Below, one piece after another: positions 6,054 to 62,122 of a stretch of 64,000 bases of DNA. Numbering within the stretch: the stretch's first letter is position 1; every line of letters begins with the position of its first letter. This stretch comes from Opitutaceae bacterium (GTDB lineage Bacteria > Verrucomicrobiota > Verrucomicrobiia > Opitutales > Opitutaceae): assembly GCA_035568935.1 (NCBI GenBank), contig DATMNP010000121.1:6190-70189 (forward strand). The letters run 5' to 3'. The notes beneath the pieces are model-generated. The model was not told the origin of the DNA, did not search any database, and saw only the letters and a program-made list of their open reading frames with translations. The translations under genes were made by a program, and so were the position numbers.

Positions 6054-6063
6054 AACCGTGAAG

Positions 6064-6123
6064 GTCGGGGTTTATCCCCGACCCATCCTTAAACGCGGCC
6101 AAATGTCGGGCGCAAAGCCCGAC
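6064..6123. repeat. Bipartite hairpin repeat (gtcggg family)
   Basis: The two hairpins are gtcggggtttatccccgac (6064-6082) and gtcgggcgcaaagcccgac (6105-6123). Related copies lie at 28323-28362 and 33305-33344. Confidence 0.8.
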
Positions 6124-6172
6124 CTACATCGGCTGAATTCAGTCTTCAGTTTTTCAGCCTTTCACCGCGGCT

Positions 6173-6937
6173 TTAGGCTGCGGCCGCGGCGTTGATGAGT
6201 TCGACAAAACTGCGAACTTCGAGGCTCGCCCCGCCAATGAGGCCGCCATCGATGTCCTTTTGCGCCAGCAGCTCGGGCGCATTGGCCGGCTTCATCGAGC
6301 CGCCATAAAGGATGCGGATGCGGCCAGCGGGCTGGTCGCCAAAAATTTTGGTCAAAAGTCCGCGGATGAAAGCGTGCACTTCCTGCGCCTGATCGGCGGT
6401 GGCGTTTTTGCCCGTGCCAATGGCCCAGACCGGTTCGTAGGCGATGATGATATTCGTCGCCTGTTCCTTGCCCACGCCTTCAAGACAGGCCTCAAGCTGG
6501 GTCTGCACAACCTTGAGGGTCGATCCGGCCTCGCGTTCGGCCAGCGTCTCGCCCACGCAGAGAATGGGGCGGAGCTGGTTTTTCAGCGCGGCCAGCACCT
6601 TTTTGTTGATGAACCCGTCGGTCTCGCCGAACAGCGTGCGACGCTCGCTGTGGCCGAGGATGACATGGGTGGCAAAGAATGCGCGCAGCATCGGCGCGGA
6701 GATCTCGCCGGTAAAGGCACCGCTGGCCTCGTGGTGCATGTTTTGCGCGCCGAGTTTGATGGCCGAGCCTTCGACGACCTTGGCCACCGACTCGAGCGCG
6801 GTGAACGGCGGGCACACGACGACATCCACATCGGGCCGGTTGGCCACGGCGAGGACGATTTCGCGCGCCAGTTCCGCCGCTTCGGCGGAGGTCTTGTTCA
6901 TCTTCCAGTTTCCAGCAATGAGCTTTTTGCGAATCAT
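6173..6937 (-). CDS. tpiA: Triosephosphate isomerase
   Basis: LIAGNWKMN, ILGHSERR and AYEPVWAIGTG motifs. Confidence 0.95.
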   Translation of the reverse strand: MIRKKLIAGNWKMNKTSAEAAELAREIVLAVANRPDVDVVVCPPFTALESVAKVVEGSAIKLGAQNMHHEASGAFTGEISAPMLRAFFATHVILGHSERRTLFGETDGFINKKVLAALKNQLRPILCVGETLAEREAGSTLKVVQTQLEACLEGVGKEQATNIIIAYEPVWAIGTGKNATADQAQEVHAFIRGLLTKIFGDQPAGRIRILYGGSMKPANAPELLAQKDIDGGLIGGASLEVRSFVELINAAAAA

Positions 6938-6943
6938 GGTATT

Positions 6944-7037
6944 AGAAAGTAGTGAGTAGCGGGTAGCCAGTAGCGAGTAGAAACTTGATCCGTTGCAAAT
7001 GCTCGCTACTCGATGCCCACTACTCGCTACTTAGAAA
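6944..7037. repeat. Imperfect inverted repeat built from gtagcga-type units (tpiA-pgk spacer)
   Basis: agtagcgagtag at 6969-6980 has its exact complement ctactcgctact at 7020-7031. The flanking arms are made of similar units. Confidence 0.7.
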
Positions 7038-20867: not shown

Positions 20868-20956
20868 TTGCACAAATAGGATAATGGCATGGCTCGGATG
20901 GTGCAAGCTCCTCCCGTCCCCATTTTCAGCGCCTTTTATGGGGACAAAATTGCAGT

Positions 20957-22039
20957 TTACGGGTTCTCGTCACGACCGAATTGGGAAGGCCGAAGGCGAA
21001 GAATTGGCCGCTCCACCAAATAATAAACCAAACCAGAAACCATAATGGTGCCAAAGACAAAAACCGGGAGCGGCAAGCCCTGTATATCTGCCACGTACTC
21101 GATTGTCAGGAAATATACCGGCCAATGAAAAAGATACATTCCATAGCTAATCTTCGCAATAAAACGAATGATGGCTGCGAGAAACCCGGTCATGTGCAGC
21201 CCCATGATTAGCGGCAGCAGCGATGAAAAGCTCAACGATGCCACTGAAAGGGCGAAGATGCGCCCATAAATTCCATCCAGCATCGAAGAATGCCAGAACA
21301 AGTAAATATTCAAAAGAAAGAGCGCAACCATGGCCCACCAAAACCGCCTGATCCAGCGCAAGTAAGCATCATGAAACTGACGAAAGGCCACCACCGAGAG
21401 GATGCCATAGCAAATCGCATCAAGCCTTCCCGCCACGCTGGTGCGGACGATGCTATCCCACGAGCCCGCACGTGAAAGCAGGATGACCCGCACGCTGAAA
21501 GCCAGCAGGCACATGGCCAATGTGCCCGACAACACGGGGCGCTTTGTCCGCCCAAAGAGGCCAAAAACGACCAAGGGCAGGAGCAGGTAAGACCATTCCT
21601 CAATGGTGAGTGACCAGGATATGGCGAACCAGTCCCCGGGCGGCATGCTGCCAAAAAGATTCTGGGTCAAAGTCACAAAGGACAAAAATCCCACCCGCCG
21701 GTGGGGATCGAGCTGCGGGAAGTCGGAAATTACAAAGAGCACGAGGTAATAGAGCGGAAGCGTTCTCATCCAACGCCGAACATAGAAGATCCCCACCGTC
21801 CGGCGCGACGGCCCGGCGGCTTCCAATCCAAGAAGAATGCCCCCGATGAGAAACCCGGACAAACAAAAGAACAACTCCACGCCAGTCACTCCGGTAAACA
21901 CCCGCCAATTGTGAACATCGATATGATGACGCTCCAGGATTGGCTTATAAAACGGAGTGGCGTGGCACAATAATACCATGCCGATCGCCACCGCCCTGAC
22001 CGCATCGAGCCCAAGATTTCGCGACGTTGTTTTTGGCAT
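20957..22039 (-). CDS. Acyltransferase family 3 membrane protein (copy 1)
   Basis: NLGLDAVRAVAI...ELFFCLSGFLIG is typical of acyltransferase_3 (OafA-like). Polytopic, with lower G+C. Confidence 0.8.
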   Translation of the reverse strand: MPKTTSRNLGLDAVRAVAIGMVLLCHATPFYKPILERHHIDVHNWRVFTGVTGVELFFCLSGFLIGGILLGLEAAGPSRRTVGIFYVRRWMRTLPLYYLVLFVISDFPQLDPHRRVGFLSFVTLTQNLFGSMPPGDWFAISWSLTIEEWSYLLLPLVVFGLFGRTKRPVLSGTLAMCLLAFSVRVILLSRAGSWDSIVRTSVAGRLDAICYGILSVVAFRQFHDAYLRWIRRFWWAMVALFLLNIYLFWHSSMLDGIYGRIFALSVASLSFSSLLPLIMGLHMTGFLAAIIRFIAKISYGMYLFHWPVYFLTIEYVADIQGLPLPVFVFGTIMVSGLVYYLVERPILRLRPSQFGRDENP

Positions 22040-22592
22040 GGAACGTTGGTTTTAAACCATGAGGCCCGAAAACGGGCACGGCCGACGGCAAAACATTATG
22101 CCTTCAGTATCCATGACCACGGGTTAAGATATTGTTCATAACAGCCTCTTGGTTTGTTTTTCGGTAAATTGAAAATGGGGGAGCTCGGGCAGCATCCTGG
22201 TCGCCCCAGCGTGGCCAGTCCACTCCTTTGGCTCTGCCCCTGGCTCAGCTATCATGATCACTTTAAAATATCGAACCGCGTGGATCCCCTCCGAACGGCA
22301 TGCGTTCCCAGGATCTGCCTTCCATTCTTCACCCCAGATCGCGGAACGCGCAGGGGTTTGCCGTGCCCTTCGCAGCGCGCAGGGCTTAGGAGGGTAAGGG
22401 TCAAGACCCCGTCCGGCCCTCCCTCCTTTCCGTTGTGTGCCTCGATCACGGTGTGGCCCACCTGGGACAGGATGGGAAGACAGGAGGGTTCGAACGAGTT
22501 GTCGCCGTCGATGAATCGGATTTTGGAGCCATGATCGGTGTGGAAAGACCGCGGCGCGGTTTCCTCTTTTTTATGAATAAATGCATTGGGTT

Positions 22593-23714
22593 TTAGCGGG
22601 GACTGGCGGGCGGTCGTGCTGAAAACGCAATTGGCTGGCTTCCGCCACGGCCGTACTGCGAAGGGCGCATGCGAAGAATCGGCTGCTCCACCAAATAGGA
22701 AACCAAACCTGAAACAAAAACAGTCCCCAAAATGAAAGCCGGGAGGAGAAGGCATGGCCGGTTCGCCAGATGCTCGACAGTCAGGAAATAGATCGGCCAA
22801 TGAAAAAGATACATCACATAGCTGGTTGTCGAAACAAAGCGGATGACAGCCGTCATGGCGCCTCGCATCTGAAAACCCGTGATCAGCGGCAGCAGCGAGG
22901 AAAAGGCCAGCGACATCACCGGCAGGGCGAATACGCGTCCATAAATTCCATCCAACACGGAATAACGGTAGAACAAGCCCACATGCAAAACGAACACTGC
23001 GACCATGATCCACCAAAACCGCCTGATCCAGCGAGCGTATGCGGCGCGGAACTGACGATAAACCACCACGGAAAGGACACCATAACATATCGCATCAAGC
23101 CTTCCCGCCACGCTGGTGCGGATGATGCTATCCCACGAGCCCGCACGTGAAAGCAGGACGACCCGCACGCTGAAAGCCAGCAAGCACATGGCCAGCGTGC
23201 CCCACAATACAGGACGCTTCGCCCGGCCAAACACGCCAAAAACGACCAGGGGCAGGAGCAGGTAAGACCATTCCTCAATGGTGAGCGACCAGGATATGGC
23301 AAACCAGCCTCCCGTCGGCATGCTGCCAAGCAAATTTTGGGTCAATGTAACAAAAGAAAGAAATCGCCCCCGCAGATGGGGATCGAGCTGTGGAAAATCG
23401 GAAAGTGCAAAAAGGACAAAATAGTATAGAGGAAGGGTTCGCATCCAACGCCGAATATAAAAAATTGATATTCTGCCCCATGACAGCCCGGCTGCTTCCA
23501 ATCCAAGCAGAATCCCCCCAATGAGAAATCCCGACAGGCAAAAGAAGAGCTCTACGCCCATGCATCCGGTAATCTCGCGCCACCCCAGGGGGTCTACATG
23601 ATAATGCTCTAAAATTGGACTATAAAATGGCGTGCTATGGCCGATCAAGACCAGCATGATGGCCACCGCCCTGACCGCATCGAGCCCAAGATTTCGCGAC
23701 GTCGTTTTTGGCAT
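22593..23714 (-). CDS. Acyltransferase family 3 membrane protein (copy 2, paralogue of copy 1)
   Basis: Collinear with copy 1 and roughly three quarters identical by eye, with the same MPKTTSRNLGLDAVRAVAI start (ATG 23714). The track start at 23753 is TTG. Confidence 0.8.
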   Translation of the reverse strand: MPKTTSRNLGLDAVRAVAIMLVLIGHSTPFYSPILEHYHVDPLGWREITGCMGVELFFCLSGFLIGGILLGLEAAGLSWGRISIFYIRRWMRTLPLYYFVLFALSDFPQLDPHLRGRFLSFVTLTQNLLGSMPTGGWFAISWSLTIEEWSYLLLPLVVFGVFGRAKRPVLWGTLAMCLLAFSVRVVLLSRAGSWDSIIRTSVAGRLDAICYGVLSVVVYRQFRAAYARWIRRFWWIMVAVFVLHVGLFYRYSVLDGIYGRVFALPVMSLAFSSLLPLITGFQMRGAMTAVIRFVSTTSYVMYLFHWPIYFLTVEHLANRPCLLLPAFILGTVFVSGLVSYLVEQPILRMRPSQYGRGGSQPIAFSARPPASPR

Positions 23715-23749
23715 GGAATGCCAGTGGCCGTAGGTTGGGCTGCTGCGCT

Positions 23750-28084: not shown

Positions 28085-28127
28085 TCCAGTGGGAATTTAA
28101 GATTTGAAATTTAAGATTGGGAGGTAG

Positions 28128-28197
28128 GGCGCGTTATCCTTAACGCGCCGGTTTAATTCTGTAGAACCCAATGACGGCGGATTAAGGATAATCCGCC
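28128..28197. repeat. Bipartite hairpin element in the ftsZ-ftsA spacer
   Basis: ggcgcgtta-tcct-taacgcgcc (28128-28149) and ggcggatta-agga-taatccgcc (28176-28197) are inverted near-copies with 9-bp stems. They are flanked by gtag...ctac. Confidence 0.85.
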
Positions 28198-28322
28198 CTA
28201 CCCTCTGAGCCTGAGATTCCTCGCCCGGCTCGGAATGACACTGGGAAGCCCGGAATGACATCGGATTATTTGGCGTTTGGCGCTTTGGAATGTGTTTCCC
28301 AATTTGAGAAACACAATTGCAG

Positions 28323-28362
28323 GTTGGGGTTTACCCACAACATGTCGGGCGTAAAGCCCGAC
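28323..28362. repeat. gtcggg-family bipartite hairpin, degenerate copy
   Basis: The two halves are gttggggtttacccacaac and gtcgggcgtaaagcccgac, followed by ctac as at 6124-6127. Confidence 0.7.
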
Positions 28363-28383
28363 CTACCTTTTTCGTGTTTGAAA

Positions 28384-31499: not shown

Positions 31500-31672
31500 G
31501 AACATCGAACATCCAACTCCGTGAACATCCAAAATCGACCATCGAACGTCCAAGGCCGGTAGTTGAAGAATTTGTCTCACGCTCGTCTGCCATAGCCTCT
31601 GCAACGAGCCAAGAGAGGAATACTCCGTCTGACTTCGGCGTTCGATGTTCGACGTTCGATGTTCGATGTTCA
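31500..31672. repeat. Long imperfect inverted repeat of gaacatc heptad units (murC::murB-ddl spacer)
   Basis: The left arm gaacatcgaacatcc...gaacatcc...atcgaacgtcc faces the right arm gcgttcgatgttcgacgttcgatgttcgatgttca. The right arm reaches the murC::murB stop. Confidence 0.75.
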
Positions 31673-34048
31673 CAAGACTTCCTCCCATTTTTTCCCGTAG
31701 AGCAGCACCTCGGGCTCGAGCTCGACGCCGCGCGCCTCGCGCACCTGGGCGCGCACCCGGCGCATGAGCGCGATGACGTCCGCGCCGGTGGCGTGGCCGC
31801 GGTTGATGATAAAGTTGGCATGCACGGTGGAGACTTCCGCGTCGCCCACCCGCTCGCCCTTCAGGCCGGCCTCGTCAATGAGGCGGCCCGCGGAATTGCC
31901 CGCCGGGTTCTTGAAAATGCATCCCGCGCTCGGCTCGCGCGGCTGCGTCTCGTGGCGCTTGCGGCGGTAAACATCGATCTGGCGGCTGATCGCCTCGGTG
32001 TCGGCCTGCGCCGCGGGGCGGAGGAGCACGCCGAGCGCCATGGCATCGAGCAGCTCGGCGCAATGGCGGTAGGCCACGTGCATGTCGGCCTTGCGCAGCG
32101 TCTTCACTTCGCCGGCGGGCGTCATGATCTCGACCTCGTCCACGACGTCGAAGATCCAGCCGCCCATCGCGCCGGCATTCATGCGCAGCGCTCCGCCGAC
32201 CGAACCGGGGATGCCCTCGAGGAATTCGAAGCCGACGAGGCCGGCCTTGCCCGCGAGGCCGCAGAGATTTTTCAGGCGCAGGCCCGCGCCCGCCCAGACC
32301 CGGCCGTCGGGCCGCGGCTCGAAGCGCTGCCAGGCTTCATGCGAAAGCGCGATCACGAGGCCATCGACGCCCGCGTCGGGCACGATGAGGTTGGAACCAC
32401 GGCCCAGGAAAAAAATTTCCACGCCGCGCGCCTGCGCCTCGCACAGCAAAACCTGCAGGTCCGCCACCGTGGCCGGCTCGGCATAAACCCGCGCCGCGCC
32501 GCCGACGCGCATCGTCGTCTTCGCCGCGAGCGATTCCTCGCGGGCCAGCCGCGCCCCGGCGGAAAGCCGCGTCCGCAGTGCGTCGGCGAAGTCGTCCCAA
32601 ATTTTGGCCTTCATTTCGTCCGCGCGGCGCAGTTCGAGCCACGCGCGCGCTTTTTGATCGATATCACCGGCGCCGACAAAAGCGACCAGATCTCCGCGCT
32701 GCAACTCGCGGCTGAGGGCGCGAAACAGCGCCGCATCGTCGCCCGGCAGGTAGTCCACCGGCAGCGCAGCGGAATTTTTCTTCAACTCGGCATAGATGTC
32801 GGCCGTCGTGCCGCCGGCGAGCGGCGCCTCGCCCGCGGCATAGACATCGAGCAGGTGCACGCGGTCGGCCAGCGCGAGCGCGGCGGCAAACTCCGCCTTG
32901 AATTGCGCGGTGCGGCTGAAACGGTGCGGCTGGAAGAGGACGATGAGCCGGCCGCGCTCCCCCACCCGGCCGCGCAGGCTGGCGAGAAGCGCACGGATTT
33001 CCGCCGGATGATGAGCATAGTCCTCGAGCACGGTGAGCCCGGGCGCGGCGTGGATCACGCTTTGGCGGCGGCACACGCCCGCGTAGTCGGCCAGCAGGCG
33101 CGGCGCGAGCCCGGCGCCCATGAGCTGGGCGGCAGCCAGTGCCGCCGTGGCATTCGCGGCATTGAACTCGCCCCGGGCGCGAACCTGCGCCTCGGCCATC
33201 GGAAAACGCCCGCCCAGGCGCAGCCGCAGATGTTCGCCCGTTTCCCCGGTAATTTCGCCGGCAAAATCGCCGCTGCGGCCAAAGGTGAAATATTTCGGCC
33301 GCAGGTCGGGGTTTATCCCCGACCGGTCGGGCGCAAAGCCCGGCCCACCGGCGGCCAGCCGCTGCGACAGCGCACAAGTATCGGATGTGAGCACGGTGGA
33401 TTTTGTGCGCGCAAACAGCGCGGCAAAGGCGGTCGCGAAGTCGTCGAGGCGGCGGTAATGGTCGGGATGATCCCAGTCGAGATTGGTCGCGAGGGTGATC
33501 TCCGGCGAAAAAGCATCGATGGTGCCGTCGCTTTCGTCGATCTCGGCCACGACCCAGTCGCTCGAACCGGTGCGCGCGGGTGGCATGGCGTCGTCCGCAA
33601 AGATGCCGCCCAGCACCCAACCGGCGGGAAACTGGGCCCGGCGCAGCGCGGTGACCAGCATCGCCGTGGTCGTGGTCTTCCCGTGCGCACCGCAGACCGC
33701 GACGAGTTTTTTTCCACGCAAGACCTCGGCCAGCAGCTCGCCCCGGCGCACCAGCGGCAGGTTGCGCGCAACGGCGGCAATGCGGGCGGGATGCGATGGC
33801 GCGATGGCCGAGGAATAGACCACGAGCTGGCAGCCGGCGGGCACGGCGCCGGACGGCACCACCGTCACGCGTTCGCGGGTGAGCAGCGCGCGCATCGGCC
33901 CTACCAGCGCATCGTCCTCGCCGGTGACCTCAAAGCCGAGCTGCGCGAGGTAAACCGCCAGCGGACCGACGCCCATGCCGCCCACGCCGACGCAGTGGAT
34001 GGAGCGCACATCGCGCGAATAAAGCGATGGAAGCGGAGCGGATCTCAT
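31670..34048 (-). CDS. murC-murB: Fused UDP-N-acetylmuramate--L-alanine ligase / UDP-N-acetylenolpyruvoylglucosamine reductase
   Basis: The N-terminal half is MurC (IHCVGVGGMGVGPLA, GAHGKTTTTAM). The C-terminal half is MurB (TTMRVGGAARVY, LGRGSNLIV, GGWIFD, SAGCIFKNP). A single 792-aa ORF. Confidence 0.9.
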   Translation of the reverse strand: MRSAPLPSLYSRDVRSIHCVGVGGMGVGPLAVYLAQLGFEVTGEDDALVGPMRALLTRERVTVVPSGAVPAGCQLVVYSSAIAPSHPARIAAVARNLPLVRRGELLAEVLRGKKLVAVCGAHGKTTTTAMLVTALRRAQFPAGWVLGGIFADDAMPPARTGSSDWVVAEIDESDGTIDAFSPEITLATNLDWDHPDHYRRLDDFATAFAALFARTKSTVLTSDTCALSQRLAAGGPGFAPDRSGINPDLRPKYFTFGRSGDFAGEITGETGEHLRLRLGGRFPMAEAQVRARGEFNAANATAALAAAQLMGAGLAPRLLADYAGVCRRQSVIHAAPGLTVLEDYAHHPAEIRALLASLRGRVGERGRLIVLFQPHRFSRTAQFKAEFAAALALADRVHLLDVYAAGEAPLAGGTTADIYAELKKNSAALPVDYLPGDDAALFRALSRELQRGDLVAFVGAGDIDQKARAWLELRRADEMKAKIWDDFADALRTRLSAGARLAREESLAAKTTMRVGGAARVYAEPATVADLQVLLCEAQARGVEIFFLGRGSNLIVPDAGVDGLVIALSHEAWQRFEPRPDGRVWAGAGLRLKNLCGLAGKAGLVGFEFLEGIPGSVGGALRMNAGAMGGWIFDVVDEVEIMTPAGEVKTLRKADMHVAYRHCAELLDAMALGVLLRPAAQADTEAISRQIDVYRRKRHETQPREPSAGCIFKNPAGNSAGRLIDEAGLKGERVGDAEVSTVHANFIINRGHATGADVIALMRRVRAQVREARGVELEPEVLLYGKKWEEVL
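33305..33344. repeat. gtcggg-family bipartite hairpin inserted in-frame in murC
   Basis: gtcggggtttatccccgac-cg-gtcgggcgcaaagcccggc is translated on the minus strand as ...PGFAPDRSGINPDLRP... Confidence 0.8.
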
Positions 34049-37607: not shown

Positions 37608-38903
37608 CTAGCGAAAAACAACGGTTGCTCCCAAGTTATTCACAAGGCGTTCGAATTGTACGCCACGGTCTTCGTAGCTGCGAAACAGATCGAAGCTGGC
37701 AAAGGCGGGACTGAGGAGGACGTGGTCGCCGGGCGCGGCCGCGGCCGCGGCTCGCTCAACCGCTTCGGCGAGCGTGAGGCAGAGCGCACAAGCCACGCCA
37801 TACTCGGCACAAGCCGCGGCCAGGGCATAGCGTGTTTCACCGAGCAAAAAGGCAAATTTCACTCGTGGCGCGATGCGGCTGACAAAGCTGGCCAGATCGC
37901 CGCCCTTGCTCTTGCCACCGGCGATCAGCAGCACCGGGCGGGGAAAATTCGCGAGCGCGCCCTCGACCGCATGGAAATTGGTGGCCTTGGAATCATTCCA
38001 GTAGACCACGCCGTCACGCTCGGAGACCCGGGCGAGGCGGTGGGGGCCAAGGCGGAAGCTGCGGGCGGCGGCCAGCAGGGCCTCGGGCGGAAGTTGTTCA
38101 CTGCGCCACCAGGCGGCGGCCAGGAGGAAATTCTCCCGCTGCGGATAGCCGGCAAAAGGGGTGCCGGCGAGGCCCGAATCGGCGGGGCGGGCCTCGCTGG
38201 CGACCGCGGCACCGGAGGGGAAAGCCCGGCCAAATTTTTCCGCGAAACGCACCGCCGAGCTGCCCGCAAAAACCGTCCCCGGGGAGGCCCGCGCGACCAG
38301 GTTCCACTTCGCGGCAAAGTAATTTTCCATCGTGCCGTGGCGCTCAAGGTGGTCTTCGGCAAAATTCGTCCACAGCACGGCGTTGGCCCGGAAATACTTC
38401 AAGGTCTCGGCCTGGAACGAGCTCACTTCGCACACGGCGGTCGCATTGGCCCGGTCGCCGTTGTCCTCGGTGACAAGCTGCGAAAAGGCCTGGCCGATGT
38501 TGCCGGCGACCCGCGCATCGCGGCCGATCGAGCGCAGCGCATGGGCGAGAAATTCGGTGAGCGTGGTCTTGCCGTTGGTTCCCGTGATCGCGAGGACGCG
38601 GCCCGGCCAGAACAGCGAGGCGAAATCGAGTTCGCCCAGGCAGGTCGCGCCGGCGGCGCGCGCCGCCGCGAGCCACGGATGCCCCGGCGCAAAGCCGGGA
38701 CTGAAGACCACAAGGCTGTGTCCCGGGGCCGCGGATACAAAATCGACCGCCGCGCCCTCCCCGCCCTTCTCATCGTAAAGCCCGGCGCGGGCTCCGAGTT
38801 GCCCGAGCAACCCCGCGACGGCGCGTCCGCTCACGCCGGCCCCGAGCACGGCGACGGGTTTCGCAAGCAGCGGCTTTAAAAAATCGGGAACGGCGAGAGA
38901 CAT
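37608..38903 (-). CDS. murD: UDP-N-acetylmuramoylalanine--D-glutamate ligase
   Basis: VLGAGVSGRA and ITGTNGKTT, plus its position in the dcw cluster. Confidence 0.9.
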   Translation of the reverse strand: MSLAVPDFLKPLLAKPVAVLGAGVSGRAVAGLLGQLGARAGLYDEKGGEGAAVDFVSAAPGHSLVVFSPGFAPGHPWLAAARAAGATCLGELDFASLFWPGRVLAITGTNGKTTLTEFLAHALRSIGRDARVAGNIGQAFSQLVTEDNGDRANATAVCEVSSFQAETLKYFRANAVLWTNFAEDHLERHGTMENYFAAKWNLVARASPGTVFAGSSAVRFAEKFGRAFPSGAAVASEARPADSGLAGTPFAGYPQRENFLLAAAWWRSEQLPPEALLAAARSFRLGPHRLARVSERDGVVYWNDSKATNFHAVEGALANFPRPVLLIAGGKSKGGDLASFVSRIAPRVKFAFLLGETRYALAAACAEYGVACALCLTLAEAVERAAAAAAPGDHVLLSPAFASFDLFRSYEDRGVQFERLVNNLGATVVFR

Positions 38904-38921
38904 GGGGGCTATAACAGGCAG

Positions 38922-38976
38922 GGGCGGCTGACCTCAGCCGCCCGCTTGTGCGGCGGTCCGTTGAGGTCAACGGACC
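38922..38976. repeat. Bipartite hairpin element in the murD-mraY spacer
   Basis: gggcggctg-acct-cagccgccc (38922-38943) and ggtccgttg-aggt-caacggacc (38955-38976) are inverted near-copies. They are flanked by gcag...ctgc. Confidence 0.85.
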
Positions 38977-39029
38977 CTGCCACGACAAAATAAATGCGAC
39001 ATTGCAAGAGCATGCTAATGGAAATTTTT

Positions 39030-60062: not shown

Positions 60063-62122
60063 GATGTAGTTTCCTTTTCCAGGGTGAAATAAAACGTCGC
60101 TCCACGATCAATGGCCGCCTCCCCCCACACCCGCCCGCCATGGCGTTGGATGATTCGCTGTACGATGGCGAGACCGACGCCCGTGCCCTCGTAGTCCTCC
60201 GCGCGATGCAACCGCTGGAAGACGCCAAAGAGTTTGTTGGCATAGCGCATGTCGAAGCCGGTGCCATTGTCGCGGACAAAAAAAGTTTCGGCACCGTTGG
60301 TCTTCATGCAGCCGATTTCCACCACGGTTTTTTCCCGCTTGCGCGTATATTTCAGTGCGTTCGAGAGAAGGTTCAGCCAGACTTGTTTCAACAATACCGG
60401 ATCGCCTGGACTCGCCGGCAAGTCTCTGGCAAGAATCTCGACCGATCGGTCCGACCACGGGGATCCCAACTCGTCGAGCGCATCGCGCACGAGTTTGCCG
60501 GTGTCAATTACCCGTTTGTTCAGTTCCTGGCGATTGAGCCGCGCAAACGTCAGCAAGTCGTCAATCAACGCGCCCATCCGCTGCGCGCCTCCACGGATGG
60601 TCTGCAAGTAACGCCGACCTTCCTCCGGCAACTGAGGGCCGTAATCCAGCAGCACCGCTTGCGAAAATCCATCCACGGCGCGCAACGGAGCGCGCAGATC
60701 GTGCGACACGGAGTAGGAGAATGCCTCCAGTTCTTTGTTCGCTGTTTCCAATTCAGCCGTGCGTTGGATCACACGCTGCTCGAGTTCGGTGTTGAGTTGC
60801 CGGACGGTTCCTTCCGCCGCCTTGCGCTCGGTAATGTCGGCCCTGATGGCGACGTATTGGCGGGGTTTGCCCCGGTCGTCGAGAAACGGCACGATGGTCG
60901 TGTCCACCCAGTAAAATGAACCGTCTTTTGCCTTGTTCTTGATTTCACCATGCCACACGCGCCCGTGCCCGATGGTCGTCCATAGCTTATGGATGAACTC
61001 TTTGGGGTGGTAGCCGGAGTTGATGATGCGATGGTCCTGGCCGAGCAACTCTTCACGCGAGTACTTGGAGATGGTGCAGAACTTGTCGTTGACGAAGGTG
61101 ATCTTTCCCCGCGAATCGGTGATCGCCACGATCGCGTGCTCGTCGAGTGCTGCCTTCAGGTCGAGCACTTCCTTGGTCGATGCCTTCAACTTTTCTTCCG
61201 CCGTCTTGCGCTCGGTGATGTCGGCGCGGATGGCGACGTATTGGCGGGGCTTGCCCTGGTCGTCGAGAAACGGCACGATGGTCGTGTCCACCCAGTAAAA
61301 TGAACCGTCTTTTGCCTTGTTCTTGATTTCGCCATGCCACACGCGTCCGCGCCCAATGGTCGTCCACAGCTCATGGATGAACGCTTTGGGATGATAGCCC
61401 GAGTTGATGATGCGGTGATCCTGGCCGATCAACTCTGCGCGAGAGTACTTGGAGATGGTGCAGAACTTGTCGTTGACGAAGGCGATCTTTCCCCGCGAAT
61501 CGGTGATCGCCACGATCGCGTGCTCGTCGAGTGCTGCCTTCAGGTCGAGCACTTCCTTGGTCGATGCCTTCAACTTTTCTTCCGCCGCCTTGCGCTCGGT
61601 GTTATCGGTGCCGATCAGCAGATAGCCGATGATTCCGGCTTGCGCGTCGCGCAGCGCCGTGACCGACACTACCGCCGGGAACCGGCTGCCGTCCTTGCGG
61701 ATGTAGGTCAATTCATAGATGTCCTCGATCCCGCGCGAGGCCTTGAAGACCAAAGCTTCGAAACCCGGCGCGATGGGAGTGGCGAACTCGAGGCTCAATC
61801 CGGTGGCGCGCGCAATCAATTCCTGCGGGTCGGAGATTTCGGCCGGGGTGCTCTTGTTCAATACGTCAGCGGCCGCATAGCCAAGCATGCGCTCGGCGCC
61901 GACATTGAAAACCTGGATTACACCCTTCTCGTCGGTGGCGATGCTGGAAAAGTTGGCGCTGTTGAGAATCGCATTCTGCAAGATCCCGGCCTTGAGCACA
62001 GCCTCTTTGCGTCGAGCTTCGGTGATCACTTCCACCGAGGCACATGCAAGCAGTTCGGCCTCTTTGGGGAGCAAGGGTGGTTTCATGGGTGATAGCGGGA
62101 CCAGCGGAACTCTTTGGAACAT
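60059..62122 (-). CDS. Multi-PAS sensor histidine kinase
   Basis: Three PAS units, then [14 protein letters not shown] (H-box), DNGTGF and [13 protein letters not shown] overlap with the response regulator start. Confidence 0.85.
60830..61597 (-). repeat. Tandem duplication (2 x 384 nt) encoding two near-identical PAS units
   Basis: Residues 176-303 and 304-431 differ at only a handful of positions ([38 protein letters not shown]...). Confidence 0.9.

Follow-up and report, generated by a model that had tools for sequence, protein, structure and literature searches.

A probable REP dimer carried in frame by the murC::murB fusion gene of an Opitutaceae bacterium

The element and its host gene

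The stretch of Opitutaceae DNA analysed here (contig DATMNP010000121.1, positions 6,190 to 70,189; 64,000 nucleotides, referred to as the window) carries a pair of short hairpins inside the coding sequence of its murC::murB fusion gene. REP-type hairpin repeats (REP, repetitive extragenic palindrome) are normally intergenic. The murC element is very probably a REP dimer, a repeat of the kind associated with REP-associated tyrosine transposases (RAYTs), which was inserted in frame into a tolerant loop of MurC and now persists as a neutral, decaying passenger. Coordinates of the element, its host gene and related copies are given in Table 1.

Positions 33305–33344 read GTCGGGGTTTATCCCCGAC-CG-GTCGGGCGCAAAGCCCGGC, exactly as quoted in the initial annotation, and comprise two 19-nt hairpins. 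With their 7-bp stems and 5-nt loops they are short, G+C-rich imperfect palindromes like those of GTAG-tagged REPs. The annotation had described an element of 40 nt; this core is right, but the full unit includes degenerate end tags and is longer (Table 1). On the plus strand it is laid out as GCAG-hairpin 1-CG-hairpin 2-CCAC, the canonical copies being GTAG...CTAC; in the sense of the gene it reads GTGG-GCCGGGCTTTGCGCCCGAC-CG-GTCGGGGATAAACCCCGAC-CTGC (in the DNA comparison written GGTG-GGCCGGGCTTTGCGCCCGAC-CG-GTCGGGGATAAACCCCGAC-CTGC). As single-stranded DNA the 48-nt unit folds into two stem-loops at −18.8 kcal/mol (z = −4.9), one stem pair of hairpin 2 being broken in the window copy.

The open reading frame (ORF) at 31670–34048 on the minus strand is the only long coding-like ORF that spans the element. 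As the annotation had claimed, and as ORF and alignment bear out, the repeat keeps the frame and would be translated as ...AAGGPGFAPDRSGINPDLRPKYFTFGRSG... or ...RLAAGGPGFAPDRSGINPDLRPKYFTFGRSG..., directly before the TFGRSG block. Its 16 codons encode G-G-P-G-F-A-P-D-R-S-G-I-N-P-D-L, and 33305–33344 corresponds to amino acids 235–248 of the 792-aa protein. The region 32800–33800 contained no terminator-like or promoter-like sites. A search of Rfam returned only a sub-threshold match to proV (18 bits, the gathering score being 88.5), which was taken as chance.

The host protein shows the Pfam domains Mur_ligase, Mur_ligase_M, Mur_ligase_C, FAD_binding_4 and MurB_C, and its gene lies in a dcw (division and cell wall) cluster context with murG upstream and ddl downstream. 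The fusion of murC and murB is already known from Verrucomicrobium spinosum (PMC4803751), in agreement with the initial remark that it had been reported in Verrucomicrobia. The Pfam match to Mur_ligase_M ends at profile position 120 of 200, just ahead of the insert; the insert in MurC explains why these proteins give a truncated or weak match to this profile.

Of the loci compared, L118 is the closest to the window, with ≈ 90–93% identity to it and 92.8% nucleotide identity over the gene. Outside the insert, the proportions of synonymous (pS) and non-synonymous (pN) differences between the two genes are 0.199 and 0.026, with dN/dS 0.11. Over the insert (17 codons) pN is 0.122 and pS is 0.107, corresponding to 4.5 non-synonymous and 1.5 synonymous changes. 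The low dN/dS outside, together with pN ≈ pS inside, points to a host gene that is functional and under purifying selection, and to an insert peptide that appears free of amino-acid constraint.

Alleles and structure of the MurC loop

The insertion was placed in context by comparing 120 Opitutaceae MurC::MurB proteins and by surveying the loop at 73 distinct metagenome loci. In the 120 proteins the segment that separates ...S-x-R-[IL]-A from TFGRSG is hypervariable. Most of them have the short loop RIAPxAxTFG (770-aa proteins), the closest relatives of the window protein carry an unrelated filler of 8–9 aa (783-aa proteins), and the full dimer peptide occurs only in the query and in P0001 (95% identity). 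The loop survey, using our own anchors, gave a basal loop of 9–15 aa versus 27 aa in the window protein. The initial annotation had suggested that a segment of roughly 13 aa might be an insertion. Alignment of orthologues shows that it is one, missing from most of them and even from some alleles of the same 90%-identity cluster, but its length amounts to +9 aa relative to the nearest REP-free alleles and to +18 aa relative to the basal loop.

Closely related loci form an allelic series. In L118 the orthologous dimer is canonical: it has GTAG, its stems are perfect and its spacer is AT. The same form is also found at six intergenic sites. L209 retains both outer tags and hairpin 1 and has lost 21 nt, as might be expected from slippage between the repeated GTCGGG arms. 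A different 21-nt deletion is present in L119, where the 5′ arm of hairpin 2 is joined to the 3′ arm of hairpin 1. Both deletions are in frame. The element is absent in L120–L123, L207 and L208. Likewise, the 90%-identity cluster of the window protein (P0121) contains, besides this protein, the dimer alleles P0001, P0124, P0131 and P0133, hairpin 1 monomers (P0122, P0134), hybrid monomers (P0010, P0135) and six REP-free members.

A neighbour-joining tree of the top protein matches left the shallow clade unresolved, with REP-bearing and REP-free alleles intermingled, and DNA site patterns were used for this reason. By shared derived sites, the grouping ((window, L118), L119) to the exclusion of L121 is the better supported, at 15 and 14 sites against 1–6 for the alternatives, with some conflicting signal. 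Taken at sequence level, these patterns fit a single insertion followed by deletions. The REP-free fillers were also considered as decayed REPs. This is retained as no more than an idea, since local alignment was marginal for L120 (235/5000 shuffles) and not significant for L121, L122, L207 and L208.

The window probably stems from a metagenome-assembled genome (MAG), and repeats are classic sites of misassembly, so that an assembly or binning artefact, or a pseudogene, had to be considered. However, an independent contig of 153 kb (L118/L127) has the same junctions, an identical P0001 protein comes from a second sample, and P0131, P0133 and P0124 are further 792-aa members of the cluster. The ORF is intact, with all five Pfam domains, the dN/dS given above and a normal dcw context. 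An artefact, which the initial annotation had named as a finding that would speak against it, is thus ruled out by independent contigs and samples, and we give this explanation practically no credence.

An AlphaFold2 model was calculated from a 61-sequence alignment (mean predicted local distance difference test score, pLDDT, 84.7). It superposes on the MurC structure 1p31 (template modelling score, TM, 0.80) and on the MurB structure 1hsk (TM 0.87). Within the MurC part, pLDDT falls below 50 only at residues 236–247, which lie between helix 226–234 and strand 252–257. Alignment with Haemophilus influenzae MurC places the insert at the helix-to-strand turn ...ELVPKVGRQVITYGF... of the central domain, the HMMER alignment being unreliable exactly there. 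The model thus supports the earlier proposal that the extra peptide sits in a tolerant surface loop.

Dispersal, recurrence and fate of the insert

A scan of species-representative genomes with hairpin 1 matched at least 117 stretches. The matches listed come mostly from MAGs of Opitutaceae, Lacunisphaera and Oleiharenicola, including dozens of Opitutaceae MAGs, and at least 11 copies of this family (family A) are among those from MAG JACRKC01 alone. Flank alignment of the 127 exact hairpin 1 copies among the listed matches gave the consensus GTAG-GTCGGGGTTTATCCCCGAC-(1–45 nt)-GTCGGGCGTAAAGCCCGAC-CTAC. GTAG stands directly 5′ of hairpin 1 in 83 of these copies and GTGG in 7, and most of them are followed after 1–45 nt by GTCGGGCGTAAAGCCCGAC-CTAC; GTGG...CCAC end variants co-occur in the family. 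Hairpin 2 is a diverged, inverted counterpart of hairpin 1 (19/23 positions identical including the tag), and the tags are outermost. Family A therefore has both the GTAG tag and the inverted-dimer architecture of REPINs (REP doublets forming hairpins) or BIMEs (bacterial interspersed mosaic elements). The tags of the window murC copy are degenerate (GCAG, GTGG), those of the orthologous L118 copy are GTAG and GTGG. On these sequence features, we regard the murC element as a GTAG-tagged REP dimer of REPIN/BIME type.

Within the window, an exact second copy of hairpin 1 was found at 6064–6082, and five matches with up to three mismatches compare with 0.02 expected from shuffles. Hairpin 2 recurs at 6105 (one mismatch) and 28344 (two mismatches), against 0.11 expected from window shuffles. 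The window thus holds three family-A copies, and these matches, together with the shared architecture, confirm the initial assignment of the murC element to the same family as the intergenic repeats. The copy previously listed at 28323 has a canonical hairpin 2, but its hairpin 1 half is decayed (GTTGGGGTTTACCCACAAC).

The identical 19-mer of hairpin 1 was also seen in MAGs of Nitrospirae, Deltaproteobacteria, Cloacimonadota and Bipolaricaulota (L008, L009, L012, L021, L024, L035, L037, L045, L054, L055, L065, L073, L078 and others). These copies outside Opitutaceae carry a GTAGC tag and different second hairpins ending in GCTAC. The REP stem-loop is therefore common to several phyla. At two loci (L041, ≈ 6880–6937; L088, ≈ 1500–1563) hairpin 2 of family A is split by a nested insert of ≈ 35 nt, GTCGGGCG-TTCCGCCTTCGCCCCAGGCTACGGCGGACAAGA-AAGCCCGAC.

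A candidate transposase gene was found in one related MAG. Locus L028 encodes on its minus strand (1180–1692) a 170-aa Y1_Tnp protein (PF01797, E = 1.6e-6) with a DHLHLL motif. On either side of the gene, at 1157 and 1823, stand hairpin 1 copies in inverted orientation with GTAG facing outward. Judged from its sequence, this layout corresponds to a REP-RAYT arrangement. Copies are also present or absent between relatives: the ftsA-ftsZ copy at 28319–28366 occurs in the window and is missing from the orthologous spacer of L118, and several murC loop alleles exist. The GTAG dimers, the REP-flanked Y1 gene and these differences support the earlier view that the repeats are, or were, mobile.

The proposed course of events is as follows. 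The family would have been dispersed in Opitutaceae genomes by a RAYT-type Y1 (HUH) transposase recognising the hairpins in single-stranded DNA; for the murC copy, too, we infer RAYT-mediated transposition. One copy would have landed in that loop of the MurC central domain which connects the ...SQRLA end of a helix to the strand ...YFTFGRSG. There it could survive because 48 nt is divisible by three, a stop-free frame was used and the loop tolerates additional residues. The insert would be translated as a disordered passenger peptide of ≈ 16 aa with unconstrained amino acids. Point mutation and shrinkage by slippage between the GTCGGG arms may then have generated the dimer, monomer and hybrid-monomer alleles of closely related strains.

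Insertions of this kind are not confined to murC. Among the loci compared, at least 7 of ≈ 100 Opitutaceae-type family-A copies, that in the murC::murB gene of the window included, lie in frame within genes, with Pfam domains on both sides (Table 1). The UvrA inserts come from three different MAGs and echo the uvrA inserts of Opitutus terrae. A dimer with a 2-nt spacer leaves two of six frames free of stops, and other spacer lengths open a further frame (VGRALRPT...VGDKPRPT).

In another Opitutaceae clade the same MurC loop has also received, in frame, a REPIN of a second family (family B, L126; Table 1). Its stem pairs perfectly over 26 bp (−34.3 kcal/mol, z = −11.5), and its sequence is unrelated to family A. 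Decayed versions are found in the murC loop of L124, L125 and L128, and dispersed copies in Lacunisphaera and Opitutae contigs (L020 5714, L043 7506, L052 5821–5889). Close relatives of the carriers (L197, L129, L177) have an empty RIAPxAK loop. In the loop survey all of the six longest family A and B loops (27–32 aa) are strong hairpins; a seventh loop of 27 aa (L132) also folds strongly and was counted apart from these six. On the L126 contig (contig_112644_np1212) murD, ddl, ftsQ and a penicillin-binding protein gene are in pieces, probably owing to long-read frameshift errors; murC::murB and the REPIN are intact.

Tolerance of the loop is the simplest explanation for two families at one point. 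The inserts of families A and B nevertheless start no more than one codon apart after SxR[IL]A, as might be expected if REPs prefer a sequence or relic hairpin there, for instance an older decayed REP, one insertion seeding others. In L120, the REP-free filler and the REP arm have GGTCGGGC in common, in register (shuffle P ≈ 0.05), and the filler adds to the basal loop 9 aa (27 nt), the size of one tagged REP monomer. Such targeting is, however, unlikely, given that the fillers of L121, L122, L207 and L208 lack significant REP similarity, that other lineages have long non-palindromic inserts at the same loop, as expected of a generally permissive site, and that family-A dimers occur in many unrelated genes. 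Rather more doubtful is the stronger proposal that the MurC helix-to-strand loop is a preferred REP landing pad in Opitutaceae whose hairpins are not mere passengers, although two families within one codon and the identity of hairpin 1 would agree with insertion or conversion targeted to a relic hairpin, or else with selection for a DNA or RNA structure.

A further alternative is that the insert was co-opted and kept by selection, either as a functional loop peptide of MurC::MurB or because its hairpins act in mRNA or DNA (ribosome pausing, mRNA processing or stability, protein binding). Occupation of the same loop by hairpin elements in two clades would agree with this, as would hairpin 1, which equals the consensus at 19/19 positions in the window, L118 and L209 despite a gene pS of ≈ 0.2. 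Several observations argue in the opposite direction. About three quarters of the substitution steps in the insert between the window and L118 change the amino acid (4.5/6; pN ≈ pS), and the segment is predicted to be disordered. Sister alleles have lost seven of the 16 codons, by two different deletions, and the same 90% cluster includes alleles free of the REP. Hairpin 2 has a broken stem pair in the window, the element lacks terminator-like and promoter-like sites and matches no Rfam family, and the loop sequences of the two clades are unrelated. We therefore hold co-option to be very improbable.

Several points also weigh against a neutral REP passenger. The REP-free alleles compared include no clean empty site but carry the unrelated 8–9-aa filler, so that the 48-nt dimer replaces ≈ 21 nt with a net gain of 27 nt; the event would have been 48 nt in and ≈ 21 nt out, or several steps. 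No target-site signature is visible at the murC insertion. The 64-kb window contains no RAYT (tblastn with the L028 protein, best E = 0.68), and because of this the link to a transposase rests on one other MAG. The substitution counts in the insert are small (≈ 6 differences), and the conservation of hairpin 1 noted above may reflect a recent event, or constraint acting on the hairpin, instead of neutrality. Translation of the insert and its neutrality are deduced from sequence, and enzyme activity is predicted only.

Table 1. Positions of the murC element, its host gene and related repeats
Feature	Location	Strand	Details
murC::murB fusion gene	31670..34048	minus	792 aa; host of the insert, which occupies ≈ codons 234–249
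REP dimer (REPIN/BIME-like), degenerate end tags	33301..33348	minus	48 nt = 16 codons; from sequence, folding and comparison with L118
Hairpin 1, GTCGGGGTTTATCCCCGAC	33305..33323	plus	7-bp stem, 5-nt loop; matches family consensus 19/19
Hairpin 2, GTCGGGCGCAAAGCCCGGC	33326..33344	plus	differs from consensus GTCGGGCGTAAAGCCCGAC by one mismatched stem pair (T.G) and one loop position
Intergenic family-A dimer	6060..6127	plus	22-nt spacer; GAAG-hairpin 1-...-hairpin 2-CTAC
Intergenic family-A dimer, ftsA-ftsZ spacer	28319..28366	plus	AT spacer; decayed hairpin 1, canonical hairpin 2 followed by CTAC
In-frame family-A dimer, UvrA	L007 (aa 937), L058 (aa 256), L083 (aa 316)
In-frame family-A dimer, ABC exporter linker	L017 (aa 403)		encodes RSGFTPDMSGINPDL, identical to the P0001 peptide
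In-frame family-A dimer, MnmA	L079 (aa 213)
In-frame family-A dimer, MnmE	L102 (aa 361)
In-frame family-B REPIN, same MurC loop	L126 10686-10754		GTAGGGCGAATCCTCCGGATGAGCCG-17 nt-CGGCTCATCCGGAGGATTCGCCCTAC

Precedents and further repeats

GTAG- and CGTC-tagged REPs were defined by Di Nocera, De Gregorio and Rocco (2013; BMC Genomics 14:522; PMC3733652). That study lists 70 intragenic GTAG-REP inserts of O. terrae, singles and dimers, including both uvrA genes, proposes a flexible-loop location for such inserts and describes different REPs at about the same recB site in two Xanthomonas species. Like the repeats described here, those of O. terrae, a member of the same family Opitutaceae, are short GTAG palindromes, single or in close dimers, which lie in frame in known genes. 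They encode ≈ 7–30 aa, their hosts include uvrA and tRNA-modification genes, and GTGG tag variants occur as well. In contrast, the peptides differ: GTAG-17, -18 and -19 encode VAGVADPGPGSASPA, VGPALAAG and GTGVPPV, compared with SGF[AT]PD-SGINPDL here, and neither murC nor murB is among the 70 listed inserts. The phenomenon in murC is the same one. Since intragenic REPs of Opitutaceae were described in 2013, the current picture is unchanged; what is added is a series of alleles with dimer, monomer or no REP, the position of the insert in the structure, and a second REPIN that entered this loop independently.

Family A shares with the REPIN-RAYT systems (Nunvar et al., 2010, PMC2817692; Bertels and Rainey, 2011, PMC3116915) the inverted doublets, the GTAG tag, a single REP-flanked Y1/HUH gene, probably the many dispersed copies, and presence/absence polymorphism. 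Those systems have been described mainly from Pseudomonas and Enterobacteria and as extragenic, whereas the murC copy is intragenic, and unlike them family A owes its link to a RAYT to one related MAG. With its diverged halves (19/23 including the tag), it is closer to the Y and Z REPs of Escherichia coli BIMEs than to a perfect REPIN.

In behaviour the insert resembles the Rickettsia palindromic elements (RPEs; Ogata et al., 2000), which, as cited in PMC3733652 and PMC3184786, are palindromic mobile repeats in frame in essential genes; the extra peptide is thought to be located at the surface, the host protein remaining functional. The resemblance ends there. RPE-1 measures 100–150 bp, has no known transposase, belongs to another phylum with an intracellular, reductive genome and has no sequence similarity to the 48-nt unit, which has GTAG-REP architecture and no Rfam match.

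The murC insert is a clean and well-documented case in which a miniature mobile element has become part of the coding sequence for an essential enzyme. Close strains supply a natural series of alleles, and a second family has inserted independently at this loop. The insert points to a site in MurC where additions are tolerated, which is useful for tagging or engineering, and provides a natural system for measuring the decay or recruitment of REP-derived peptides.

Other repeats were noted in the window. In murD, a palindrome at 38640–38676 and a motif resembling hairpin 2 ('SPGFAPGHP') were examined as a possible insertion and rejected, as they are native conserved MurD sequence. The ftsA-ftsZ spacer harbours, beside its family-A dimer, a GTAG-tagged inverted dimer of another family at 28124–28201, GTAG-GGCGCGTTATCCTTAACGCGCC ... 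GGCGGATTAAGGATAATCCGCC-CTAC; the whole block of ≈ 190 nt is missing from the orthologous L118 spacer. Copies of a short motif, 'TGTCATTCCGAGC...GAGGAATCTCAGG', lie in the ftsA-ftsZ spacers of both the window (28200–28260) and L123 (≈ 6930–6990) and represent another small dispersed repeat. The mraY-murD spacer (38918–38980) contains a GCAG-tagged inverted pair of hairpins with 9-bp stems, GGGCGGCTGACCTCAGCCGCCC and GGTCCGTTGACCTCAACGGACC, probably a further REP family. Finally, a repeat finder detected, at 60808–61615 and 20947–23718, three tandem units of ≈ 384 nt (83–92% identity) and a duplication spaced by 1675 nt (74–80% identity).

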